Source of the DNA: Spirochaetales bacterium
Lineage (GTDB): Bacteria; Spirochaetota; Spirochaetia; JAFGXN01
Direction: 5' to 3'
DNA: 60,169 bases
Assembly (NCBI GenBank): GCA_016936615.1
Contig: JAFGXN010000131.1
Coordinates: forward strand, 1-60,169
Position 1 is the first letter of the stretch. Each line of letters opens with the position of its first letter. The notes beneath the pieces were generated by a model. That model made no database searches and was not told the origin of the DNA. It saw only the letters and a list, made by a program, of their open reading frames with translations. Positions 4,827-17,240 of the stretch are shown piece after piece. The translations under genes and the position numbers were made by a program.

Positions 4827-6272
4827 CTATTTGACAAATTCCCACTTCTGAGGATACCGACCATCTGGGCCAGATAAGAGCTCGTGATTAGGATAGTGGA
4901 CAGATATCTGACAGCGACCCTCTTTCTTCACCTCTATTTTAACATAGTGATCTGCCTGCTCTCCGTAAACATAGCCGTAGATATTATTATCATCAGCATA
5001 ACTCTCAATATCAGGCGCATGATAGTAATTTTTTCCAGAATATTTTGCTTGTCCATATCCATTCTTGTCCGATGTATGGTCAATATACCTTTCGGGATTC
5101 CAAGGTCTTCGATAAGATTGAATTTTTTCCATCTTACCAGTCTTAATATTAAACCACTCAATAGAATCATCGCCAATACCCCTCTCTAACAAGTTAAAAG
5201 AGATCTCTAATTTAGCGCCACCACCACCGATGCACCAGAGATAAAGAGGATCTTCAGCAGGAAGGTCTCCCTCCTCATAGAGATACCCACTCTTGCCATA
5301 CTGATATTCCCAATGTTCATAGTGATGATCATGCCCAAAAAAGATTCCATCAACCTTATACTTAGAAGCTAGCGGAACAATCCATTTCTGCAAATCAACA
5401 TTCCTACCTGAAGTACCAGTTGTCAACATTGTATGATGCATAAAGACAAAGGTCCATTTAATTTTTTCATCATTATAAGCCTCTCTCAACAGAGACTCAG
5501 CCCAATCCTTCTGAAAATCACTCATCTGACCTGAAAGCTCTTTATCAAAGTTGTCCAAAAAGATCATCCTAACATCAGCATAATCGACATGATAGAATTT
5601 CCCTCTCTCCTCAGTCTTTGTCTGGTAAGGATAAGAAAAAAACCTAGCAAAATGCGCATGGCCATCATCCCAATAGTCATGATTTCCAATCGCGGAGAGA
5701 AAAGGGCGATTTGCGACCATCTTTGGCAATATCCTCAGCGCAGGCCCCCACGTTAGCGAGAGTCCACCATGCCCAGTAACATCACCTATCTGACAAACAA
5801 AATCTGGATTAATCTCCTCCACGGCATCAGCAACCAAACGATTCGACCTATTTCGAATAATCGGCATTGGTTGCCAATCTCCTACAACTGCAAAAGTAAA
5901 ATCTGCCGGCTCCCCCGCCACTGGAGCTGTCTTAAACCGATGCACACCTCCATCGACACCAGCACCAGATCTAACAATCTTGTAAAAATACTCAGTTCCA
6001 GGCTCAAGCCCGCTTAGAACAATATTCTGCGTTGTGGTGGAAGTCTCACCCCTTGCAGAAAACTCCAAATTGTCGCTGGATTTGCCGTAGATTACTTCGC
6101 CGTGTCTCTTGACCGCTGAGACCCAGTTCACGGTAACGCTGATTGTTGGGTCTTCGCTCCAGGTCAACCAAGGACCAGCAGCAAATCCATATACCGGCTT
6201 TGTCGAACTCAAACATGATTGCAACACTAAAGCAAAAACAAATAAAATTATTGAACAGTAACCTTTTTTCAT
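4827..6272 (-). CDS. metallophosphoesterase lipoprotein with N-terminal FN3-like (purple acid phosphatase-type) domain
   Basis: Start moved to ATG 6272 (GGAGG upstream); lipobox LQSC; LSGLEPGTEYFY; VGDWQ, GDV, GNHD, MHH, GHDH motifs. Confidence 0.85.
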   Translation of the reverse strand: MKKGYCSIILFVFALVLQSCLSSTKPVYGFAAGPWLTWSEDPTISVTVNWVSAVKRHGEVIYGKSSDNLEFSARGETSTTTQNIVLSGLEPGTEYFYKIVRSGAGVDGGVHRFKTAPVAGEPADFTFAVVGDWQPMPIIRNRSNRLVADAVEEINPDFVCQIGDVTGHGGLSLTWGPALRILPKMVANRPFLSAIGNHDYWDDGHAHFARFFSYPYQTKTEERGKFYHVDYADVRMIFLDNFDKELSGQMSDFQKDWAESLLREAYNDEKIKWTFVFMHHTMLTTGTSGRNVDLQKWIVPLASKYKVDGIFFGHDHHYEHWEYQYGKSGYLYEEGDLPAEDPLYLWCIGGGGAKLEISFNLLERGIGDDSIEWFNIKTGKMEKIQSYRRPWNPERYIDHTSDKNGYGQAKYSGKNYYHAPDIESYADDNNIYGYVYGEQADHYVKIEVKKEGRCQISVHYPNHELLSGPDGRYPQKWEFVK

Positions 6273-6363
6273 AAAACCTCCAAAATTCAATCGTACCACC
6301 CGAGCAAAATTAGAGGTTTAATTTTTTATTAATTTAAGATTAAAAAGGGCAGCCACTAAACAC

Positions 6364-8733: not shown

Positions 8734-9429
8734 ATGAAACAAATAAAATTCAAAATAGACAATATTCCATCTACTCTATATGGTTCAGAATCTAATAAAC
8801 TATATCTATATGTCCACGGAAAACATGGAAACAAAGAAGAGGCAAAGAACTTTGCTGTCCTTGCTGAAAAAAAAGGAATGCAAGTTCTAAGCTTCGACCT
8901 GCCAGAACATGGCGAAAGGAAAGACGAAAGATACGAATGTACAGCAGAAAATGGAGCAAAAGACTTAATAAAAATACACCACTACATTACTAGAAATTAT
9001 TCAGAAATCTCTCTTTTTGCATCCAGCCTTGGAGCCTTTTTCAGCCTTATGGCCTTCCAGAACAATACCTTCCACAACTGCCTTTTCCTTTCTCCAATCC
9101 TCGACATGAAAAAATTAATTGAAAACATGATGACTTGGACGAATACCACAGTAGAAGATCTTGAAACAAAAAAGAAAATATTAACACCCTTCGGAGAGAC
9201 CTTATCATGGGATTACTATCAATATACGATGAGAAATCCAATCCTAAAATGGGATAGCCCAACATCTATTTTATATGGAGAAAAAGATAACCTTACCGAA
9301 CGCAAAATCCTCGATTCCTTCGCCAATAACTTCAACTGCGATATAACAATTATGACAAATGGAGAACACTTTTTCCATACCCAAGAACAACTTAAATTCC
9401 TAACACACTGGCTTAAAGAAAAAATATAG
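8734..9429 (+). CDS. alpha/beta hydrolase
   Basis: YVHG, FDLPEHG, nucleophile elbow ASSLG, YGEKD, GEHFFH. Confidence 0.85.
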   Translation: MKQIKFKIDNIPSTLYGSESNKLYLYVHGKHGNKEEAKNFAVLAEKKGMQVLSFDLPEHGERKDERYECTAENGAKDLIKIHHYITRNYSEISLFASSLGAFFSLMAFQNNTFHNCLFLSPILDMKKLIENMMTWTNTTVEDLETKKKILTPFGETLSWDYYQYTMRNPILKWDSPTSILYGEKDNLTERKILDSFANNFNCDITIMTNGEHFFHTQEQLKFLTHWLKEKI

Positions 9430-9449: not shown

Positions 9450-9472
9450 AAAAAAGCCCCCTTGCGGGAGCT
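9450..9472 (-). terminator. intrinsic terminator ending the ald operon / VOC gene
   Basis: Minus strand AGCTCCC-GCAA-GGGGGCT-TTTTT. Confidence 0.7.
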
Positions 9473-9511: not shown

Positions 9512-10027
9512 TTATTTATAATAAGCCTTGAAAGGCCCTTTTCTCATAATAAAACCAACCAACTTTCCAAGGACTCTAATCGCAAAGTAGTTGAATCGCA
9601 AATCAATAATCTCAATCAAATTACCATCTGGATCTCTGAAGAAGAACCATGCAGCACCGTCAGTCTCCTGAGGCTCGCACAACAGTTCAACATCACCTCT
9701 TGCTTTCAACTTATCATACCATTTGTAGGCATTGTGAGCATCGAAAGTAAAGTGAGTAGTTCCTGGTCTATTCCATGCATGGTCAAATGGTGCTGTCTCA
9801 GAGAACTCAAAAATCTCCACGACTCCGCCCTTTGGCGCTCGAAGAAAGCCTAGCTTCACGCTAATCCCTTCTTTCAGATTATATAATTTTTTCTTACCTG
9901 CAAGTGTTGCAGCATCTAACTCAGACACAGAAAGTAGTGGCATCTTAAACACATCCCAATACCATTTAACCGCCTTGTCAAAATCCTTAACAGTAATTCC
10001 AACATGACTAAGTGACTTTATCCTCAT
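9512..10027 (-). CDS. VOC (glyoxalase / methylmalonyl-CoA epimerase-like) metalloprotein
   Basis: SHVGITV, VEIFEF, THFTF, FFRDPDGNLIEI give the His/Glu/His/Glu ligand set; second ATG (10027) has the better RBS spacing. Confidence 0.88.
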   Translation of the reverse strand: MRIKSLSHVGITVKDFDKAVKWYWDVFKMPLLSVSELDAATLAGKKKLYNLKEGISVKLGFLRAPKGGVVEIFEFSETAPFDHAWNRPGTTHFTFDAHNAYKWYDKLKARGDVELLCEPQETDGAAWFFFRDPDGNLIEIIDLRFNYFAIRVLGKLVGFIMRKGPFKAYYK

Positions 10028-10046
10028 ATTCATCTCCTTTTTTTAT

Positions 10047-10084
10047 AAAAAAAGCACAGCTGTCCCACAAATAAGACAGCTGCT
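10047..10084 (-). terminator. terminator-like hairpin between SCP2-like gene and VOC gene
   Basis: Minus strand GCAGCTGTC-loop-GACAGCTGTGC followed by T7, ending just before the VOC RBS. Confidence 0.6.
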
Positions 10085-10089
10085 CAAAA

Positions 10090-10884
10090 TTATTTGATCA
10101 TTGAACCAACTAGAAGCATGTGATCACCAAGCTGCGCACCAAACTCTGGTCCACCAACCATGGTCAACTTACCTTCGACTGTTGACTTGATCATATCATC
10201 AACTTCCAACAATATACCTAGCGCACTTCGCGGAGAGTCAAACTTCATTGTGAAGAATGGCATACTTCGCTTATAGACACCTCTAGCTGCCCTTGAATTT
10301 CCTGCTTTAATTCTAATATAAGCAGAAAGATCTGGATAACCGTCAACTGCCCAAGCATACACACGGTCTGGACTCTTCTGTGTCCAAGCCTTGATAGCTG
10401 GATGACCAAGTTTGTTCAAAGTACTAATTCCTGATGACAACAGATAGAACATACATCTTGTCAAAAGAGCCTGAGTCTCAACATCCTTAGGTGGTTGTTT
10501 TGCTCCAAGCAATCCAGACATTGTCAACAATGCAGACAAGAACCCGAAGTGACTCAACATCCCTTTTGGAAGAGGTAAAATTTTTCCTTTAAAAAAACCA
10601 TTCATATGCTCTCTTGATTTGAACAAGAGCTCACTAGTAGGCTTTCCGTCAAACACACCTCTTACAACTGTCCAAGCTCCCTCTTCAACTACAAAGTGCA
10701 TAGCCTCTTTCTCACCATTATGCATACAAGCAACCTGGTGCACCGCGCTTTTCCCCTCCCACTTCTTAGCAAGCTTGGGAGTATTCTCGACAATAGTCTT
10801 TAATACAGGAAGTACTGCGTTAAAAAATAGTTTGTTCGAATATAAAGTAGCTTGTTCGTTTGTCATTTCTACATTTTCGCCCAT
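10090..10884 (-). CDS. hypothetical protein with two predicted SCP2-like (lipid-binding) domains
   Basis: Pattern AYIRIKAG...PFFTMKFDS...GIL...DMIKSTVEGKLTMVG resembles the SCP2 signature (two beta strands, then L.G.LD...A...GKL...G); a similar pattern occurs in the N-half. Confidence 0.55.
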   Translation of the reverse strand: MGENVEMTNEQATLYSNKLFFNAVLPVLKTIVENTPKLAKKWEGKSAVHQVACMHNGEKEAMHFVVEEGAWTVVRGVFDGKPTSELLFKSREHMNGFFKGKILPLPKGMLSHFGFLSALLTMSGLLGAKQPPKDVETQALLTRCMFYLLSSGISTLNKLGHPAIKAWTQKSPDRVYAWAVDGYPDLSAYIRIKAGNSRAARGVYKRSMPFFTMKFDSPRSALGILLEVDDMIKSTVEGKLTMVGGPEFGAQLGDHMLLVGSMIK

Positions 10885-10898
10885 TTTACGCCTCCTGA

Positions 10899-11906
10899 TT
10901 AAATTTCATCGTCCCAGTTATCATCTTCCTCAAAATCTGCACCCATAAGCTCTCGAGCTGCAGCAAGAATTCCATTTGCACCATAACCATAGTAGTCCAT
11001 CAAGTCTTCATGAAGACCGATAATTGAGAACACATCTGGAACACCAAGTTTCTTGAAAGCACAAGCCTTACCAGTCTCGACCATAACCTCAGCAACAGCA
11101 GAACCAAGTCCACCATAAATATTATGATCTTCAACAGTAATAATTCTTCTTGTATCATGAACAGCCTTCTTAATTGCATCTGCATCAATTGGCTTGATTG
11201 TATGCATATTAAGAACTCTTGCTCTAATTCCTTCACCTTCAAGAACCTTTGCAGCATCCATAGCTCTAGCAACACAAGCACCAGTAGCGATGATAGTAAG
11301 ATCAGTTCCCTCTTTCATCTCCTGAGCCTTTCCTAGCTCGAATTTACACTCGTCCATAGACTTGTAAACTGGCATGTCAAAACCTCGATTGATTCTCAAA
11401 TAAACAGGACCTGGAGTCTCATAAGCAGCAGCAACTGCCTTTGCAGTTTCAAAACCATCACAAGGGACAATAACCTTACAATTAGCCATAGTTCTCATTA
11501 TTGCGATATCTTCTGTACAGTGGTGAGTAGAACCAGCCTGACCAAAAGAAAGACCTGCATGAGTTGCAATCATCTTTACATTCAAGTTCTGATAACAAAT
11601 ATCAGTGTGAATCTGATCTAGACCTCTCATTGCTGTAAAAATAGCAAATGTTGAAGCAAAAGGAACAAAGCCCATCTGAGCAAGCCCTGCTGCCATACCA
11701 AACATATTCTGCTCAGCAATACCTGCATTAAACAATCTGTCAGAAAACTTATCCAACAAAGCTCCAATCTTAGTAGACTTTGCTAAGTCAGCTGAAAGCC
11801 CAACAACCTTTGAATCTTGTTCAGCAAGCTGAACCAAAGTACTTCCATACATCTCCGCAGTTGTCATGTTAGTAGCTTCAAGCATTGTATAATTTAAATT
11901 AGCCAT
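10899..11906 (-). CDS. split transketolase, C-terminal (pyrimidine-binding/C) subunit
   Basis: ADLAKST, GIAEQNMFG, THAGLSFGQAGSTHH.TED, GPVYLR, TIKPID, TVEDH...GGLG. Confidence 0.92.
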   Translation of the reverse strand: MANLNYTMLEATNMTTAEMYGSTLVQLAEQDSKVVGLSADLAKSTKIGALLDKFSDRLFNAGIAEQNMFGMAAGLAQMGFVPFASTFAIFTAMRGLDQIHTDICYQNLNVKMIATHAGLSFGQAGSTHHCTEDIAIMRTMANCKVIVPCDGFETAKAVAAAYETPGPVYLRINRGFDMPVYKSMDECKFELGKAQEMKEGTDLTIIATGACVARAMDAAKVLEGEGIRARVLNMHTIKPIDADAIKKAVHDTRRIITVEDHNIYGGLGSAVAEVMVETGKACAFKKLGVPDVFSIIGLHEDLMDYYGYGANGILAAARELMGADFEEDDNWDDEI

Positions 11907-12766
11907 TATTTACCCCCCTTTGCTTTTCTTGCATCGTGATAAGCATCGATATCTGCAACAGATTTCTCAACACCAGAAGCATCGATTGACGCATAGTGAT
12001 ACTCGTACTTATCCTGCATCCAACTGATACCACAACCTTTGAAAGTATTAGCAATAATAACAACTGGCTTATCTTTTGCAGCCTTAGCCTTATCAAAAGC
12101 CTCTGCAATCTGATACATATTGTGTCCATCAATCTCCACAACATCAAAACCAAAAGCTCTCCACTTGTCAGCAAATGGCTCAAGCTTCATAACCTCTTCA
12201 GTTGGTCCATCAATCATACATCTGTTTCTATCTACGATAGGAATAACATTTGTAGCTTTAAAATGAGAAATTGCCATTGCAGCTTCCCAGATTGAACCTT
12301 CATCACACTCACCATCACCCATGATAACATAGATGTTTATATCTTTTTTCAAAAGCTTAGCACCAAGAGAATTTCCCAATGCAATAGAAAGCCCATGTCC
12401 AAGAGAACCAGAAGAAGCATCAAGACCTGGAACCTTATTAACATCCAAGTGCATTCCAAGCTTACTCTCTGTATGGTTATAAGTCTTTAACCACTCTTTA
12501 TCAAAAAAACCCTTATCAGCAAGAACTGGAGCATAACCAACTCCAATATGACCTTTACTTACAATAACTCGGTCTCTATCTTCCCATTTAGGATTCTTAA
12601 CATCTACTCTTGCATATTTGTAGTAGATCATTGTCAAAATATCAGTAGCACTCAAAGCACCACCAATATGTCCACCACCAGCCCAACTTACTGTCTGGAC
12701 AGTTAACTTTCTTAACTCTCGTGCCTTATCTTCTAGCATGTTAAAATCTTGTTCAGAAATACCCAT
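11906..12766 (-). CDS. split transketolase, N-terminal ThDP-binding subunit
   Basis: GGHIGGALS, DRVIVSKGH, GSLGHGLS, ThDP motif GDGECDEGSIWEA...DRN; stop overlaps next ATG. Confidence 0.93.
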   Translation of the reverse strand: MGISEQDFNMLEDKARELRKLTVQTVSWAGGGHIGGALSATDILTMIYYKYARVDVKNPKWEDRDRVIVSKGHIGVGYAPVLADKGFFDKEWLKTYNHTESKLGMHLDVNKVPGLDASSGSLGHGLSIALGNSLGAKLLKKDINIYVIMGDGECDEGSIWEAAMAISHFKATNVIPIVDRNRCMIDGPTEEVMKLEPFADKWRAFGFDVVEIDGHNMYQIAEAFDKAKAAKDKPVVIIANTFKGCGISWMQDKYEYHYASIDASGVEKSVADIDAYHDARKAKGGK

Positions 12767-12776
12767 ATAAACCCCC

Positions 12777-14039
12777 TTATTTTCTTAGCTTATCAGGATT
12801 GTTCTTAGCAACAATACTATAAGCAATGTCTGCAATCTCTAAAGTCTTCTTAATATCTGCATCTGTCAACGAGCAGTTTGTGAAATGATTATGATGACTT
12901 ACAAAGAAAGCGCCCCTCTTAGTACACTCAGCACAGAACTCCTGCTGCATAAATAATGAATCTTCATTAGCTATTCTCATATAGAACATAGAAGGAACAC
13001 CAGAGATCTTCATATCTATTCCATAAGATTTGCCAATCTCAACTAGACCTGAAGTTAATTTTTCACCCCTCTCTATCATTATCTTTGGAGCATTTATCTT
13101 TCTCATTTCAGTGATACAAGCAATAGCAGCTGCCATTGGAACCGCACTTGACCAGTAACTTCCAGTAAAGAATACATTTGAAGCTGCGCCCTTAAGCCCT
13201 TCACGACCAACGACAGCAGAGATATTATATCCATTAGCTAAAGCCTTACAGTAACATGCCAAATCTGGCTTGAACCCGAAATACTTAGCACTTCCAGCAA
13301 GATCTAATCTAAAACCACATCGAACATCATCGATAATAAGAATAATTCCATTATCATCACAAATCTTTCGAATAGCCTGCCAGTACCCTTCAGCTGGTAA
13401 AACATTATCCTGAAAAACTCTATGGTCATAAGGACAGCTGATAAAAGCAGCAATTTCCCCCGGATTAGCCTCTACTGCTCTCTTGACAGCCTCTACATCA
13501 TTCCAAGGAACAATAATATTATTAGAAACATCCGCAGTAGCAACTCCAGCATTTCCTCGTCCCTGAGTCCAAGGAGCAACACCATGGTAACCACCTTCAA
13601 CTCGAATAATCTTCTCACGACTAGTCTCTGCTCTTGCTACCATAACAGCAAAAGATGTAGCATCTCCACCATTTTTCATGAAAAAAGACCAATCAGCAAT
13701 TTCGATTGTATCTACTAGCAACTCAGCCAAATCAACCTGAAGAGCACCAGGAAGAGCCATACAGTTACCCTTCTTCATCTGAGCAAGTGCAGCTTGATCA
13801 ACTATGTCATTGTTATAACCAAGTACGTTAGGACCATATGCACACATATAATCTATGTACTCGTTTCCATCAATATCCCAAAAATGCGAATCTTTTACCC
13901 TATCAGCGTAAAAAGGAAAATCGCTAGTTGGAATAAACTGAGACTGTACTGGTCCAAGATGTCCTGGAATACCAGTAGGTAATACCTTTACGGCTCTTTT
14001 AAAAAGCTCGATTGATTTATCGTTTTTATATACTTCCAT
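12777..14039 (-). CDS. class III PLP aminotransferase, FumI/GSA-aminomutase-like
   Basis: DIDGNEYIDY, KNGGDATS, YHG, DDVRCGFR, PDLACYCKALANG (PLP Lys), TGSYWSSAVPMAAAI. Confidence 0.9.
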   Translation of the reverse strand: MEVYKNDKSIELFKRAVKVLPTGIPGHLGPVQSQFIPTSDFPFYADRVKDSHFWDIDGNEYIDYMCAYGPNVLGYNNDIVDQAALAQMKKGNCMALPGALQVDLAELLVDTIEIADWSFFMKNGGDATSFAVMVARAETSREKIIRVEGGYHGVAPWTQGRGNAGVATADVSNNIIVPWNDVEAVKRAVEANPGEIAAFISCPYDHRVFQDNVLPAEGYWQAIRKICDDNGIILIIDDVRCGFRLDLAGSAKYFGFKPDLACYCKALANGYNISAVVGREGLKGAASNVFFTGSYWSSAVPMAAAIACITEMRKINAPKIMIERGEKLTSGLVEIGKSYGIDMKISGVPSMFYMRIANEDSLFMQQEFCAECTKRGAFFVSHHNHFTNCSLTDADIKKTLEIADIAYSIVAKNNPDKLRK

Positions 14040-14051
14040 TTCTAAACTCCC

Positions 14052-14807
14052 CTATGCAAGATAATTAGCAACCATGCCCAAAATTGGATCAATATGTTCT
14101 ACCATTGGGATAAATCCTCTCATAGACATATCACCAAGTCCCATTGCTGTAAAAGTATCAAGCTCATTATTTAAAATTTTATGAGCAACCTCTAAGCTAC
14201 TAAAAGACAAAATTGCTCTTGGATTTGAGCAAGAACTCTTCTTCGCAGTTAATTTTCCACTCTTTACTGAAATTGTAATAGAAGGACCATTAGTTACAGC
14301 CACAAGAAGATCTCCGTCATGCAATTGCTTTGCCTGACTCATACCAGCTGGATCATAATTTGCAATCTCGCACAAGGCATGAAAAGCAGCGTAAGCAGTC
14401 ATCTCAGTATTAGCCTTAAAATAATCTTTATTAGCTAATAACTCTTTTGTTGGCTTTAGGTAAAAGCCTAACTTATCTGCTAACTGAGTAAACGGTCCTG
14501 TAAGAAATCCAATCTTTGTAAAACCCTTTACTGGGATAGGATTTGCTTCCCCGTCTACCATTTTATTAAAATGTTCTGGAGATTTGAAAAACAAGGAAAT
14601 ATTACTCTTGTGTTTTCCATGTTTCATCTCTGCCTTTCCATTATCAAAGGATAAGTTCGCACTTGGACCACCCTTTACATTAAACTGAATAGCAATCTTC
14701 TTACCTGCAACAAGATTTGCACATTCTTTGTCATTTACAACAAGATATTCTATATTCTTCAAAACGCCAAACATATTACATCTTGCTTTCACTGATTGAT
14801 TAACCAT
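14052..14807 (-). CDS. hypothetical protein with two predicted SCP2-like domains
   Basis: IQFNVKGGPSANLSFDNG and ITISVKSG...PRAILSFSS...KILNNELDTFTAMGLGDMSMRG SCP2-like patterns; distant paralog of 10090..10884. Confidence 0.6.
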   Translation of the reverse strand: MVNQSVKARCNMFGVLKNIEYLVVNDKECANLVAGKKIAIQFNVKGGPSANLSFDNGKAEMKHGKHKSNISLFFKSPEHFNKMVDGEANPIPVKGFTKIGFLTGPFTQLADKLGFYLKPTKELLANKDYFKANTEMTAYAAFHALCEIANYDPAGMSQAKQLHDGDLLVAVTNGPSITISVKSGKLTAKKSSCSNPRAILSFSSLEVAHKILNNELDTFTAMGLGDMSMRGFIPMVEHIDPILGMVANYLA

Positions 14808-14840
14808 AAGCCCCCCTAAATCTCTTATTATTTATAATTA

Positions 14841-15956
14841 TTATTTTACTACATTCTCTGTAGCATGATAATCAAAATCAAATGCGTCTGCAACGCCTTT
14901 ACAGGTAATCTTACCCTTGTAGACATTCAATCCGCCAGCTAATGCCTTGTTCATACTGCAAGCAACTTCAACACCATGCTGAGCAAGCAACAAACCATAG
15001 CTCAATGTTGTTCCAGTCAAGGCAACAGTAGAAGTTCTAGCCACTGCACCAGGCATATTTGCAACACAGTAACATACAATACCATCAACAATGAAGACTG
15101 GATCATCGTGATAAGTTGCTTTTGTAATCTCAAAACATCCGCCCTGATCTACAGCAACATCCACCATCACAGCACCTTTCTTCATCAACTTCATATGTTC
15201 ATTTCTAACAACCTTTGGCGCCTTCTTTCCAGGAATCAAGACCGCACCAATAATCACATCAGACTCAGCACAAACCTTTCTAACATTTCCCTCATTACTA
15301 TAAAGAGTCGAAACCCTTCCCCCAAATATATCATCGATATAAGCAAGACGTTGTGCATTTACATCAAGAATTGTAACATCTGCACCAAGCCCAACTGCCA
15401 TCTTTGCCGCATTCAATCCAACAACACCACCACCAATTACAGCAACCTTTCCTCGCTCTACTCCAGGGACACCACCAAGAAGAACTCCTCTTCCACCAAA
15501 TGGCTTCTCAAGATACTTCGCACCCTCTTGAGCACTTAACCTTCCCGCAATCTCACTCATTGGTTTTAGACAAGGCAAAGAACCATCAGCCTCCTGAATA
15601 GTCTCATAAGCGATAGCCTTAACATTACTCTTCAACAAAGCCTCAGTAAGTGGCTTGTCAGCAGCTAGATGCAAGTAAGTATAAATAATCAAATCCTCTC
15701 TGAAATATTTATATTCAGCTTCGAGTGGTTCCTTAACCTTAATAATCATCTCTGAATCAGCCCAAATCTTTGCAGCTGAATCTACAATAGAAGCTCCCGC
15801 CTCGACATACTCTTGATCTGAGAAACCAGCTCCTTCACCTGCTGATTTTTCAATCATCACACTATGTCCTGCTTTAACATAAGCCACTACACTACTTGGT
15901 GTAAGCCCAACCCGGTATTCATGCTTTTTAATTTCTTTTACACAACCTATTTTCAT
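14841..15956 (-). CDS. ald: alanine dehydrogenase
   Basis: [55 protein letters not shown]. Confidence 0.97.
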
Positions 15957-15980
15957 CTGTTGCCTCCTAGGATAATCTTC

Positions 15981-15996
15981 GAGCGAGCACTCGCTC
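15981..15996. promoter_or_regulatory. palindromic operator, probable TetR site
   Basis: GAGCGAG-CA-CTCGCTC between the ald -10 box and RBS, next to a divergent tetR. Confidence 0.7.
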
Positions 15997-16002
15997 TAAA
16001 TT

Positions 16003-16031
16003 ATTTTAACCTTACCTATTCCATAAAGCAA
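16003..16031 (-). promoter_or_regulatory. sigma70-type promoter of the ald operon
   Basis: Minus strand TTGCTT-N17-TAAAAT; predicted start site falls at the operator edge. Confidence 0.65.
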
Positions 16032-16074
16032 GATTTTTTTTTATAATTAAAGAAAAATCTGGAGTAAAACCGAA

Positions 16075-16752
16075 ATGCAAGATACAAACAGCTCTATTAA
16101 AAAATATTATAAACCGACTTTTGAAAAAATTCCAAGCGAAAAAAGAAAAAGAATCATAGATACTGCAATTTCCGAGTTCGCTGCGAACGGGTACAATGCG
16201 ACAAGTATCAATACAATTGCAAAAAAAGCTTGCATTTCTATCGGTTCTATGTATAGTTACTTTGACTCAAAGGAGAGCCTCTTTATGACCCTGCTTGACC
16301 AAGGGTACAAACTCCTAAGCGAGGCTCTCGGCGAAGTAATAAAAGACAGCGGAGACTTCTACTCGAAGTTCAAAAAATTCCTAAAGATCTCACACAAATA
16401 CGCTACAGACTTCCGAGAGATAAACCAAATATACATCGACATCTCCACAGAGGGCTTAAGCCACCTAGCAAATGAGATGTCTCTCAAGATGGAGAGCGAC
16501 ACCTCCGAAGTCTACCACAAACTCATAGAGCAAGCCAAGTCAGAAGGAATAATTTCCGAAGATATAGACTCCAACATTGCTGCATTCTGCCTCGACAACA
16601 TTGTGATGATGGTTCAATTCTCATACGCATCAGCCTACTATCGTGAACGTATGAAATTTTACCTGCAAACAGACACAATCGAAAATGATGAAGAGATTAT
16701 AAATGGAATAGTTTATTTTATCGAGAATGGATTAAGACCGAGGAACAAATGA
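16075..16752 (+). CDS. TetR/AcrR family regulator
   Basis: IIDTAISEFAANGYNATSINTIAKKACISIGSMYSYFDSKESLF HTH. Confidence 0.93.
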   Translation: MQDTNSSIKKYYKPTFEKIPSEKRKRIIDTAISEFAANGYNATSINTIAKKACISIGSMYSYFDSKESLFMTLLDQGYKLLSEALGEVIKDSGDFYSKFKKFLKISHKYATDFREINQIYIDISTEGLSHLANEMSLKMESDTSEVYHKLIEQAKSEGIISEDIDSNIAAFCLDNIVMMVQFSYASAYYRERMKFYLQTDTIENDEEIINGIVYFIENGLRPRNK

Positions 16753-17240
16753 AAAAAATAATAACAACACAGATTGTAATAGCCCTAATAATTGCCGCAA
16801 ACTTTGCGATAGATCAAGGAACAAAGGCATATGCAGACAAACACCTGAAAAGCTCACCGCGTCAAGAGATTCTCGGAGATTTTCTCGCACTAGAATACGC
16901 AGAGAACACGGGAGCATTCCTCGGCGCCTTTGCAGGATCAAACAAGATATTAAGAATCCTCCTATTGAAAGCCTTTCCCCTATTAACAATCATATTCATC
17001 ACATTTCTAACTTTTTTCTCAAAAAAAATTACAATACTTAACAAGATAAGCTTCGCATTCATCATCGGAGGCGGTCTAGGCAATCTATACGATAGATTTT
17101 TCAGAAATGGCTATGTGATAGATTTTCTCCACATGGATTTCCATCTCTTTCAGACTGGAATATTCAACATTGCTGACCTCTCAATAATGATAGGCTTCGC
17201 CCTGCTTATAATCTCTCTTTTTTCAAAAAAAAAAGACTGA
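16749..17240 (+). CDS. lspA: lipoprotein signal peptidase II
   Basis: DQGTK, ENTGAF, GGGLGNLYDR, VIDF, FNIADL; ATGA overlap with tetR. Confidence 0.93.
   Translation: MKKIITTQIVIALIIAANFAIDQGTKAYADKHLKSSPRQEILGDFLALEYAENTGAFLGAFAGSNKILRILLLKAFPLLTIIFITFLTFFSKKITILNKISFAFIIGGGLGNLYDRFFRNGYVIDFLHMDFHLFQTGIFNIADLSIMIGFALLIISLFSKKKD

Follow-up and report, generated by a model that had tools for sequence, protein, structure and literature searches.

A conserved aminotransferase–transketolase–SCP2 gene set in spirochaetes and gut bacteria, a candidate for the breakdown of long-chain aminodiol lipids

Introduction

What substrate would call for a class-III aminotransferase, a split transketolase (TK) and two SCP2-fold proteins encoded side by side? 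This question is raised by a locus in a 60,169-nucleotide stretch of DNA from a Spirochaetales bacterium (contig JAFGXN010000131.1), which is referred to here as the window. The original prediction held that the transaminase and the TK together cleave long-chain 2-amino-1,3-diols, with the SCP2 proteins as lipid carriers. A literature search found no paper describing this pathway; if the prediction is true, the locus would encode a route of sphingoid-base breakdown that has not yet been described.

Results

Seven minus-strand open reading frames and a divergent regulator were confirmed between positions 9512 and 16752. Head to tail on the minus strand, the order is Ald, tandem-SCP2, class-III aminotransferase, TK N, TK C, tandem-SCP2 and VOC. 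The coordinates, the protein families and the palindrome at 15981–15996 bear out the tightly packed array with a divergent TetR gene that had been described. The features are as follows.

9455..9472, minus strand: terminator-like hairpin past the VOC gene (from sequence)
9512..10033, minus strand: VOC (glyoxalase/dioxygenase fold) protein, accessory (PF00903, 68 bits)
10056..10083, minus strand: terminator-like hairpin separating the VOC gene from that for P0001 (12-bp stem with 5 GC pairs, then a T run)
10090..10884, minus strand: P0001, second tandem-SCP2-fold protein, 264 aa (no Pfam or NCBIfam match; assigned by fold)
10899..11906, minus strand: TK C-terminal subunit, Pyr + TKC domain (PF02779 Transket_pyr and PF02780 Transketolase_C)
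11906..12766, minus strand: TK N-terminal (PP-domain) subunit (PF00456 Transketolase_N)
12777..14039, minus strand: class-III, FumI-like aminotransferase (PF00202 Aminotran_3)
14052..14807, minus strand: P0002, tandem-SCP2-fold protein, 251 aa (weak Pfam SCP2 match, 26.5 bits; assigned by fold)
14841..15956, minus strand: alanine dehydrogenase (Ald), the operon's first gene in this genome (TIGR00518)
15981..15996, no strand: palindrome GAGCGAG-CA-CTCGCTC between ald and tetR, candidate TetR operator (from sequence)
16075..16752, plus strand: TetR-family regulator, divergent (PF00440 TetR_N)

The VOC gene is present on the same strand as the other six, but the strong terminator-like hairpin at 10083–10056 sets it apart from the gene for the 264-aa protein.

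The conserved unit is five genes (SCP2, aminotransferase, TKN, TKC and SCP2), not seven. They run uninterrupted and in unchanged order at 15 of the 21 genome loci that bear the TK–SCP2 module, and are colinear in all 44 metagenome loci with a length of 15 kb or more, which collapse to only 8 clusters at 90% identity; linkage of the five genes is far beyond chance. The distribution is wide, comprising marine or sediment-type spirochaete MAGs as well as gut contigs (the human gut is named in some of the 44 metagenome contig titles), and the gene set is conserved in anaerobic spirochaetes and human-gut bacteria. It is also modular, as the aminotransferase is paired with the P0002 orthologue without TK at one locus (L017), and both TK subunits are kept together with the 264-aa protein without the aminotransferase at five. 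Co-occurrence in other genomes holds for the five-gene core; VOC, Ald and TetR are accessories of particular lineages. The VOC gene comes straight after the core in 12 of the 21 genome loci and in 4 of the 80 metagenome loci, Ald is near the core in 2 of 21 (the window and L001) and 1 of 80, and TetR is near the core in 3 of 80 metagenome loci.

L049, L050 and L051 have a TetR orthologue of 43–52% identity transcribed away from the core, and each of these loci has palindromes of the GAGTGA-N-TCACTC type upstream of the core (two copies in L050). Such orthologues also adjoin the core in L070, L071 and L074, and an imperfect related palindrome lies upstream of it in L001. The combination of TetR with a conserved palindrome suggests that the operon may be inducible. 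The VOC protein misses the glyoxalase I equivalog (35.9 versus 120) and had no close solved relative in the structure-database comparison; at a guess, it might epimerise or isomerise a ketol. The C3 configuration of natural sphingoid bases, D-erythro, is the reverse of the one that canonical TK donors need, and the VOC protein, which might epimerise the ketol, is absent from most loci; on stereochemical reasoning, this bears against a D-erythro sphingoid substrate.

The best solved relative of the aminotransferase is FumI, the 'aminopentol aminotransferase' 6hbs (E 2.2e-89 over residues 10–412), followed by GSA aminomutases at E 2.6e-52 or weaker. Its identity to FumI is about 45%, judged by eye from the alignment, in which a Lys at about residue 265 aligns with the Lys of the FumI GK motif. 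The aminotransferase scores under the HemL and GntE equivalog cut-offs, GntE being the top NCBIfam match. FumI deaminates the sphinganine analogue hydrolysed fumonisin B1 at C2, with pyruvate as the preferred co-substrate, and 2-oxoglutarate is not used (PMC3136697). The pyruvate preference fits the linkage of the aminotransferase to Ald in this genome, where Ald reaches 505.8 bits for the TIGR00518 equivalog (cut-off 391.85); the pairing of alanine dehydrogenase with a transaminase is itself direction-neutral. As regards a sphingoid substrate, it counts against this reading that the substrate rests on a homologue at that by-eye identity and that the FumI substrate is itself 1-deoxy.

The ThDP, Mg and catalytic residues are retained in the cluster TK. 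The best solved relatives are 6yak for TK-N (E 3e-79) and 6yaj for TK-C (E 2.8e-82). TK-N keeps the GDGE...N motif and the His equivalents of E. coli H26, H66, H100 and H261, and TK-C keeps S385, E411, H461, H473 and R520. Other positions are replaced: in TK-N, 16 of 16 orthologues have Asn in place of R91 and 'MHL' in place of 'GHP'; in TK-C, R358 is Ala in 19 of 20 (Lys in L016) and E468-D469 is Gln-Ala or Ala-Ala in 20 of 20, with Ala for D469 in all. The 'QA' form was also seen in 70 of 71 metagenome TK-C matches, whereas the housekeeping full-length TK of the same genome keeps R358, E-D and R91. The acceptor or substrate pocket of the cluster TK thus appears, on residue comparison, to be remodelled. 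Engineering of E. coli TK at R358, S385, D469 and R520 shifts the enzyme towards aromatic aldehydes (PMC7661550), and in the S385Y/D469T/R520Q lineage the preference moved from phosphorylated to polar and aliphatic and then to aromatic aldehydes (PMC5073344 for D469T). Of the four residues that bind phosphate, S385, H461 and R520 are kept, so a phosphorylated substrate is still conceivable.

Both P0001 and P0002 fold as double SCP2 domains in AF2 models. P0002 (pLDDT 90.0) has two SCP2-like alpha/beta units, with Foldseek matches to UbiJ-SCP2, SCP2 proteins and the SdsA1 SCP2 domain (probability 1.0, TMt 0.6–0.69). P0001 (pLDDT 93.9) matched SCP2 domains with probability 1.0 in Foldseek; its earlier designation as SCP2-like could not have been made from the sequence and is borne out by the fold. 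It has more than 1000 homologues, and 'hypothetical protein' is every source name among the 120 listed. Its orthologue follows TK-C in 21 of 21 genome loci, including those without the aminotransferase. P0002 may be a lipid chaperone of the aminotransferase, and P0001 a lipid chaperone or partner of the TK.

Two neutral ceramidases are encoded in the genome of the window, and signal or lipoprotein leaders mark both for export. This family was found in 4 of 4 genomes tested of the window's own family and in 0 of 14 control genomes. Co-occurrence more widely is moderate: ceramidase is present in 13 of 27 module-bearing genomes tested, and in a phylum sample in 10 of 22 with the module versus 53 of 279 without it. 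In one family, 34 of 45 genomes encode ceramidase and 0 of 45 the module, and two genomes with the five-gene cluster (G030 and G008) gave no ceramidase match. No ceramidase, kinase or transporter was linked to the core in the 21 genome or 80 metagenome loci. When linked ceramidase and aldehyde dehydrogenase genes were sought, only aldehyde-oxidising genes were found beside the module: an aldehyde:ferredoxin oxidoreductase (AOR) in L053 and L055, and, in L045, an aldehyde dehydrogenase that also matches LuxC (acyl-CoA reductase) weakly. In L001 and L011 the module's neighbours include OYE/FadH-type ene-reductases, which would make sense if the product from sphingosine were a 2-enal. A variant locus, L052, consists of a Zn-ADH, TKN, TKC, a tandem-SCP2 protein and a 3beta-HSD/SDR-like gene.

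Discussion

The explanation that we favour, with roughly even confidence, is that the locus serves the catabolism or detoxification of long-chain 2-amino-1,3-diols, the sphingoid bases sphinganine and sphingosine being prime candidates. From the observed gene content, conservation, homologies, residue changes and folds we infer a sphingoid-base substrate, an acceptor for the C2 unit, a direction, and roles for the SCP2 and VOC proteins. The FumI-like aminotransferase, supplied by its own tandem-SCP2 chaperone, would transfer the C2 amino group to pyruvate, giving alanine and a 1,3-dihydroxy-2-ketone, and in this genome Ald would return alanine to pyruvate with release of NH4+ and NADH. The split TK, with an acceptor pocket that is probably wider and less polar and with P0001 always encoded alongside, would then cleave C2–C3 on ThDP, freeing a fatty aldehyde and passing the glycolaldehyde unit to an aldose (phosphate). 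The aldehyde would be processed by enzymes encoded elsewhere in the genome or, in some lineages, beside the cluster, and TetR would repress the operon until the lipid amine is present. The predicted cleavage with SCP2 carriers is supported in part by the FumI homology, the remodelled TK pocket, the tandem SCP2 folds, the two exported ceramidases and the aldehyde-oxidising neighbours; the seven-gene operon as the conserved unit did not hold.

The same enzymes could work in the biosynthetic direction, with the TK extending a fatty aldehyde by a C2 ketol unit, after which the aminotransferase would aminate the resulting ketone with Ald-supplied alanine, giving an aminodiol lipid without serine palmitoyltransferase (SPT). 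The TK and transaminase reactions are reversible, but amination of a ketone by alanine is thermodynamically unfavourable. Small genomes (1.9–2.0 Mb) and most gut-type loci have the core without a regulator, the L045 aldehyde dehydrogenase with its LuxC resemblance could make the aldehyde, and the top NCBIfam match of the aminotransferase, though under the cut-off, is a biosynthetic transaminase. Pairs of a TK-like enzyme and an aminotransferase are reported in biosynthesis, for example for anisomycin (PMC11387542), and a precedent is reported for SPT-independent sphingolipid synthesis (PMC12134224). We nevertheless consider biosynthesis unlikely: the closest characterised aminotransferase is catabolic, TetR with an operator occurs in several lineages, the same genomes contain exported ceramidases, AOR adjoins the module, and no acyltransferase or ceramide-synthase-like gene was found at any locus examined.

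An equally improbable alternative is that the pathway cleaves a different lipophilic amine or ketol. Candidates are an aryl 2-amino-1,3-diol, capnine or a similar sulfonolipid base, and a side chain of the amino or dihydroxyacetone type on a steroid or hopanoid. This reading would fit the action of the split TK DesAB on a steroid ketol, the resemblance of L052 to desABC in gene content, the binding of sterols besides acyl chains by SCP2 domains (to go by the names of the Foldseek matches) and the preference of E. coli TK variants altered at R358 and D469 for aromatic aldehydes. However, homology to FumI indicates an acyclic 2-amino-3-hydroxy chain, and the amine of amino-steroids and amino-hopanoids sits elsewhere in the molecule. 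The spread over spirochaete MAGs and gut contigs also calls for a common substrate, and ceramidase co-occurs with the module in the family to which the window belongs. Less probable still is that the substrate is hydrophilic, an amino-polyol or an amino-sugar alcohol. [quoted passage not shown] This alternative would fit the kept phosphate contacts, the closeness of TK-C to a split TK with ordinary activity, and an SCP2 assignment that comes from fold rather than ligand data; yet R358, D469 and R91 are lost in every orthologue, two dedicated double-SCP2 proteins are encoded, the nearest aminotransferase relative acts on a lipid, and no linked sugar kinase, isomerase or sugar transporter was found at the loci examined.

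Cleavage of aminodiol lipids would follow the logic of the taurine pathway Tpa–Ald–Xsc, in which a pyruvate-dependent transaminase forms alanine, Ald recycles it and a ThDP enzyme cleaves the carbonyl product. In that pathway, however, Xsc is acetolactate-synthase-like rather than a TK, and a hydrophilic substrate is processed without lipid carriers. Engineered TK–transaminase cascades to 2-amino-1,3-diols use the same enzyme pairing around a ketodiol or aminodiol. In anisomycin biosynthesis, AniP/AniQ reportedly likewise couple a TK-type enzyme to a transaminase (PMC11387542). Both the cascades and AniP/AniQ differ from the cluster in their synthetic direction, small or aromatic substrates and lack of SCP2 partners. 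The sphBCD system of Pseudomonas aeruginosa also acts on free sphingoid bases without kinase and lyase, to a product not yet identified (PMC11398299), but it is aerobic and relies on proteins unrelated to those of the cluster, namely a periplasmic FMN oxidoreductase, a cytochrome c and a PLP aldolase.

Closer parallels exist for the individual enzymes. FumI, from the fumonisin-degradation cluster of Sphingopyxis sp. MTA144, is likewise a class-III, HemL-like PLP enzyme, and its substrate is a long-chain 2-amino-3-hydroxy sphinganine analogue resembling the one proposed here (PMC3136697). That substrate is 1-deoxy and polyhydroxylated and its product is a methyl ketone, whereas the product proposed here is a ketol; the FumI cluster is aerobic and alphaproteobacterial and includes a carboxylesterase, and the available text mentions no TK or SCP2 partner. 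The split TK of Carboxydothermus hydrogenoformans (6yaj/6yak), the closest solved TK to both cluster subunits, has an alpha2beta2 architecture (PMC7661550) and keeps R358, E468-D469 and R91, all three of which the cluster enzyme replaces. The steroid-17,20-desmolase DesAB of Clostridium scindens is a split N/C TK present besides a housekeeping TK, as in the cluster. It sets a precedent for a split TK with a lipophilic 1,3-dihydroxy-2-ketone as substrate, here the side chain of cortisol; the proposed reaction is cleavage of the ketol, with the C2 unit entering the pentose-phosphate pathway (PMC3735941). The des operon is without aminotransferase or SCP2 genes, the ketol being already present in cortisol, and the Zn-ADH that adjoins the TK genes in L052 has its counterpart there in DesC.

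Organization of the gene row and its regulator

The minus-strand row of seven genes, as first observed, was confirmed by the ORF table and by Pfam and NCBIfam scans. It comprises the following features, together with a divergent regulator gene and a palindrome.

9512-10033, minus strand: VOC protein, general VOC family PF00903
10090-10884, minus strand: P0001, tandem-SCP2 protein of 264 aa, no family match in the Pfam/NCBIfam scans
10899-11906, minus strand: transketolase C (TK-C), from the ORF table and Pfam/NCBIfam scans
11906-12766, minus strand: transketolase N (TK-N), from the ORF table and Pfam/NCBIfam scans
12777-14039, minus strand: class-III aminotransferase, PF00202, 127 bits
14052-14807, minus strand: P0002, tandem-SCP2 protein of 251 aa, weak Pfam SCP2 match
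14841-15956, minus strand: ald, alanine dehydrogenase, 505.8 bits against the NCBIfam equivalog TIGR00518, above its cut-off of 391.85
15981-15996: palindrome GAGCGAG-CA-CTCGCTC
16075-16752, divergent from the minus-strand row: TetR gene

Spacing within the row ranges from a 1-nt overlap to 56 nt. A hairpin with a 12-bp stem and a T run, resembling a terminator, lies in the gap between P0001 and the VOC gene, a second terminator-like hairpin lies 3' of the VOC gene, and the VOC protein scores below the glyoxalase I equivalog (TIGR00068, 35.9 versus a cut-off of 120). Palindromes of the GAGTGA...TCACTC type, related to that of the window, are found 5' of the core genes wherever an orthologous TetR gene is divergent from them (L049-L051). 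The genes flanking the row are housekeeping genes (EF-G, LspA, Na+/H+ exchanger and PTS EIIA). The TetR stop and the start of lspA (signal peptidase II; 16749-17240) share 4 nt, and the two genes may be co-transcribed. The alpha/beta-hydrolase gene at 8734-9429, convergent with the VOC gene, was rejected as a member of the system, as none of the other genome loci has a counterpart beside the cluster at E 1e-5. A purple-acid-phosphatase-like metallophosphoesterase of 490 aa is encoded upstream of EF-G (4827-6299), with no link to the cluster seen.

A conserved five-gene core of two modules

Loci for comparison were collected with P0002 and P0001 as probes, giving a genome set of 21 loci that carry the transketolase genes and the 264-aa gene, plus one (L017) with only the aminotransferase and its SCP2 partner, and a metagenome set of 80 loci. 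The original prediction had called for co-occurrence of all seven genes in other genomes, and this held for five of them: the order P0002 family, aminotransferase, TK-N, TK-C and 264-aa family is contiguous and co-oriented in 15/21 genome loci and colinear in all 44 metagenome loci of at least 15 kb, but the VOC, TetR and ald genes are mostly absent. A VOC gene follows the core in 12 of the 21 genome loci, a TetR-family gene adjoins it in five (the window, L001 and L049-L051, the last three encoding orthologues 43-52% identical to the window TetR), and ald adjoins it in two (the window and L001). Among the 80 metagenome loci these extras are rare (VOC 4/80, TetR 3/80, Ald 1/80), and the conserved unit is therefore five genes in two modules, an aminotransferase with its own SCP2 protein and a transketolase with its own SCP2 protein. 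At 90% identity the 80 metagenome loci reduce to 16 clusters, and a long locus is present in 8 of these, which leaves few independent metagenome loci; some of the matching contig names contain 'human-gut-metagenome'.

The remaining genome loci show the modules rearranged or apart. Five of the 21 (L046 and L052-L055) carry only TK-N, TK-C and the 264-aa gene. One (L016, 10520-11441 on G008:C2) has all five genes in a different arrangement, with TK-N broken into ORFs of 177 and 154 aa, and with the aminotransferase and its SCP2 partner divergent from the transketolase genes; it may be a decaying copy of the cluster. In L017 (8067-11743 on G006:C28), the aminotransferase and SCP2 pair occurs without any transketolase, and is divergent from an uncharacterised 152-aa gene and a gene for a Ca2+-dependent PI-PLC-like phospholipase.

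Of 301 genomes in the phylum sample, 22 have the 264-aa family, which is fixed in two taxonomic families (9/9 and 6/6). Neighbours of the gut-type loci (TrpRS, a class-I/II aminotransferase, PrsW protease, amidohydrolase, fucosidase and a beta-lactamase-family hydrolase) were set aside as evidence, being unrelated or confined to a single lineage. In one metagenome locus (L111, 6359-8027), genes for a 354-aa beta-lactamase-family serine hydrolase and a protein of 198 aa whose N-terminus is signal-like lie between the aminotransferase and TK-N; their products may release an amine from a conjugate.

The aminotransferase resembles FumI

The closest solved relative of the aminotransferase is 6hbs, the 'aminopentol aminotransferase' FumI (E 2.2e-89, residues 10-412), and GSA aminomutases come next among the solved matches, the best of them at E 2.6e-52. 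The enzyme has the PF00202 fold, and its PLP lysine aligns with that of the FumI GK. It falls short of the HemL (glutamate-1-semialdehyde 2,1-aminomutase) equivalog (TIGR00713, 213.1 versus a cut-off of 527.3) and also of the GntE equivalog cut-off. For FumI, pyruvate is the preferred acceptor (Km 490 uM), 2-oxoglutarate is not used, and the authors point out the likeness of the FumI substrate to sphinganine (PMC3136697). The homology to FumI thus lends independent support to a long-chain 2-amino-3-hydroxy substrate and to the link with alanine dehydrogenase, the aminotransferase activity itself being predicted.

The transketolase appears to have a remodelled acceptor pocket

Both transketolase subunits are closest to the split enzyme of C. 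hydrogenoformans (E 2.8e-82 and 3e-79). As the window's own genome (G000) also encodes a full-length transketolase, besides a DXS-like gene, the split transketolase is an extra enzyme. The ThDP/Mg2+ motif and the activating Glu (GDGE...DRN in TK-N, IAEQN in TK-C) are kept in all orthologues, and comparison with solved transketolases and the housekeeping enzyme showed that the equivalents of the E. coli catalytic His residues H26, H66, H100, H261, H461 and H473 are kept too. E. coli residue numbering was verified by spacing (H461+8, R358+27 and R91+9).

The pocket differs at three sites. Ala takes the place of R358 in 19 of 20 TK-C orthologues (Lys in L016), E468-D469 reads Gln-Ala or Ala-Ala in 20/20, so that D469 is Ala throughout, and R91 is Asn in 16/16 TK-N orthologues, where the adjoining 'GHP' motif reads 'MHL'; the Gln-Ala pair is also read in 70 of 71 metagenome TK-C matches. 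The canonical residues are retained in the G000 housekeeping transketolase and in the C. hydrogenoformans enzyme. The split enzyme therefore does not preserve the recognition set for sugar phosphates and 2-hydroxy aldehydes, of which only the S385 and R520 equivalents are kept, and all its scores against the NCBIfam transketolase equivalogs lie under the cut-off (for example, 265.9 versus 488). The activity of E. coli transketolase on aromatic aldehydes has been improved by mutations at R358, S385, D469 and R520 (PMC7661550). In a further study, stepwise engineering took an E. coli transketolase lineage from phosphorylated aldehydes by way of polar and aliphatic ones to aromatic ones; the D469T change makes room in the pocket, and R91 is the salt-bridge partner of D469 (PMC5073344). 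Taken with the kept catalytic residues and the replaced pocket residues, this engineering makes the natural enzyme look like a catalytically intact transketolase with a widened and less polar acceptor pocket.

The sole longer protein found, an apparent fusion of TK-C with the 264-aa protein (P0122, 622 aa), was rejected as a true fusion: its Arg/Pro/Gly-rich linker is typical of out-of-frame read-through in GC-rich DNA, and it is probably a frameshift.

Two families of tandem-SCP2 proteins

The AF2 models of P0001 and P0002 (pLDDT 93.9 and 90.0) each contain two SCP2-like units. Foldseek searches against the PDB matched the SCP2 (C-terminal) domain of the SdsA1 alkylsulfatase, UbiJ-SCP2 and many sterol-carrier proteins, with probability 1.0 and TMt of 0.5-0.69. 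The Pfam SCP2 signal is weak in P0002 and absent in P0001, and the sequence likeness between the two proteins is weak (E 3e-5). On these models both proteins are assigned the SCP2 alpha/beta fold and are predicted to bind lipids. They represent two new double-SCP2 families; that of P0001 lacks a Pfam model and counts more than 1000 members, drawn from MAGs of Spirochaetes and Clostridia, and all 120 listed members carry the source name 'hypothetical protein'. As many polar residues are invariant in P0001 (for example, P172-D173-R174, R191, K193 and E247), it may do more than carry lipid.

Ceramidase and aldehyde-converting genes

Two neutral-ceramidase homologues (PF04734, 405 and 360 bits), both with long C-terminal extensions, are encoded elsewhere in the window's own genome.

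G000:C16:24836-26533 (locus L057, 1345-4038): neutral-ceramidase homologue, 897 aa, signal-peptide-like leader
G000:C67:970-2592 (locus L058, 139-2733): neutral-ceramidase homologue, 864 aa, lipoprotein-like leader

The family is also present in all three other tested genomes of the window's own taxonomic family, even at 1.9 Mb, and in 0/14 control genomes; two genomes with the cluster (G030 and G008) gave no ceramidase match. In the phylum sample, a ceramidase occurs in 10/22 module-bearing genomes versus 53/279 others, and one taxonomic family has it in 34/45 genomes and the module in 0/45. Because these counts are confounded by kinship, the co-occurrence gives moderate support to the sphingoid-base reading.

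Linked ceramidase or aldehyde dehydrogenase genes had been named as something to look for, and genes of the aldehyde-handling kind were seen in some loci. An aldehyde:ferredoxin oxidoreductase (AOR) gene adjoins the transketolase module in L053 and L055 (one genus), and an aldehyde dehydrogenase gene does so in L045, but the core has no ceramidase, AOR or OYE gene beside it in any of the 80 metagenome loci. OYE/FadH-type ene-reductase genes adjoin the module in L001 and L011, and would suit a 2-enal derived from sphingosine. Genome-wide, four Aldedh matches and a single AOR were found in G000. The AOR of L053 (4271-10857) and L055 (4010-10562) is of the tungsten type and has beside it a second kind of class-III aminotransferase, with 27% identity to that of the window; the two genes are divergent from the TK-N, TK-C and tandem-SCP2 genes.

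Discussion

We consider catabolism or detoxification of long-chain 2-amino-1,3-diols, such as sphingoid bases, to be the best explanation of the cluster, and give it about an even chance of being correct. The deamination and transketolase-cleavage steps rest on homology and residue evidence, and the remaining steps we infer. A lipid amine bound by P0002 would be deaminated at C2 by the aminotransferase with pyruvate, and Ald, where present, would recycle the alanine. The transketolase, together with P0001, would then cleave the 1,3-dihydroxy-2-ketone to a fatty aldehyde and ThDP-bound glycolaldehyde, and the latter would pass to an aldose phosphate (S385, H461 and R520 are retained). The fatty aldehyde would be oxidised or reduced by an AOR, aldehyde dehydrogenase or ene-reductase encoded nearby or elsewhere, and TetR would sense the amine. 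The idea of transaminase plus transketolase action on sphingoid bases is partly supported, and is strengthened by the FumI homology and the pocket residues, but its direction, acceptor and exact substrate are still inferred.

Stereochemistry bears on this reading. Natural sphingoid bases are D-erythro, and canonical transketolase donors are xylulose-like. By our own reasoning, the ketone from a D-erythro base would have a ribulose-like C3, opposite to that of canonical donors, and the mismatch would need either a different facial selectivity of the remodelled transketolase or an epimerase. The VOC protein could be a C3 epimerase of the ketol; an obligatory role of this kind was given less weight, as most loci have no VOC gene.

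More tentatively, and with somewhat less confidence than for the catabolic reading itself, we propose a widespread anaerobic sphingoid-base route that needs neither kinase nor S1P lyase, in which a FumI-type aminotransferase and an R91N/R358A/D469A transketolase, each with a double-SCP2 chaperone, would break sphinganine or sphingosine down to a fatty aldehyde, a C2 unit for pentose phosphates, and ammonia. If so, sphingolipids from the host, the diet and Bacteroidota would be both detoxified and used as food by anaerobes of gut and sediment. Sphingoid bases occur as host lipids with antimicrobial action, in the diet and as membrane lipids of Bacteroidota, and little has been learnt of how bacteria dispose of them when free; even for sphBCD of P. 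aeruginosa, the product awaits identification, so that bacterial metabolism of such bases is not yet settled (PMC11398299). The five-gene module would provide a testable genetic marker of sphingoid-base turnover in gut and sediment microbiomes and would give two uncharacterised double-SCP2 families a function. For biocatalysis, where engineers mutate the same positions, its transketolase would be of interest as a natural enzyme suited to lipophilic substrates.

The full-text literature searched contained nothing relevant on this gene combination or on a transaminase/transketolase route for sphingoid bases. We therefore regard the cluster as a putative undescribed pathway assembled from known enzyme kinds. 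Its logic is like that of taurine catabolism, which runs through Tpa-Ald-Xsc, and its aminotransferase resembles FumI. The transketolase step is like that of DesAB, described as a split transketolase that cleaves the side chain of cortisol (PMC3735941); the window contains no desC- or desD-like gene. One locus (L052, 1298-6382 on G160:C5) encodes a Zn-dependent ADH, TK-N, TK-C, the tandem-SCP2 protein and a 3beta-HSD/SDR-like protein, with no aminotransferase. This layout is similar to that of the desABC steroid desmolase operon and suggests that the transketolase and SCP2 module has been reused for ketols made by dehydrogenases.
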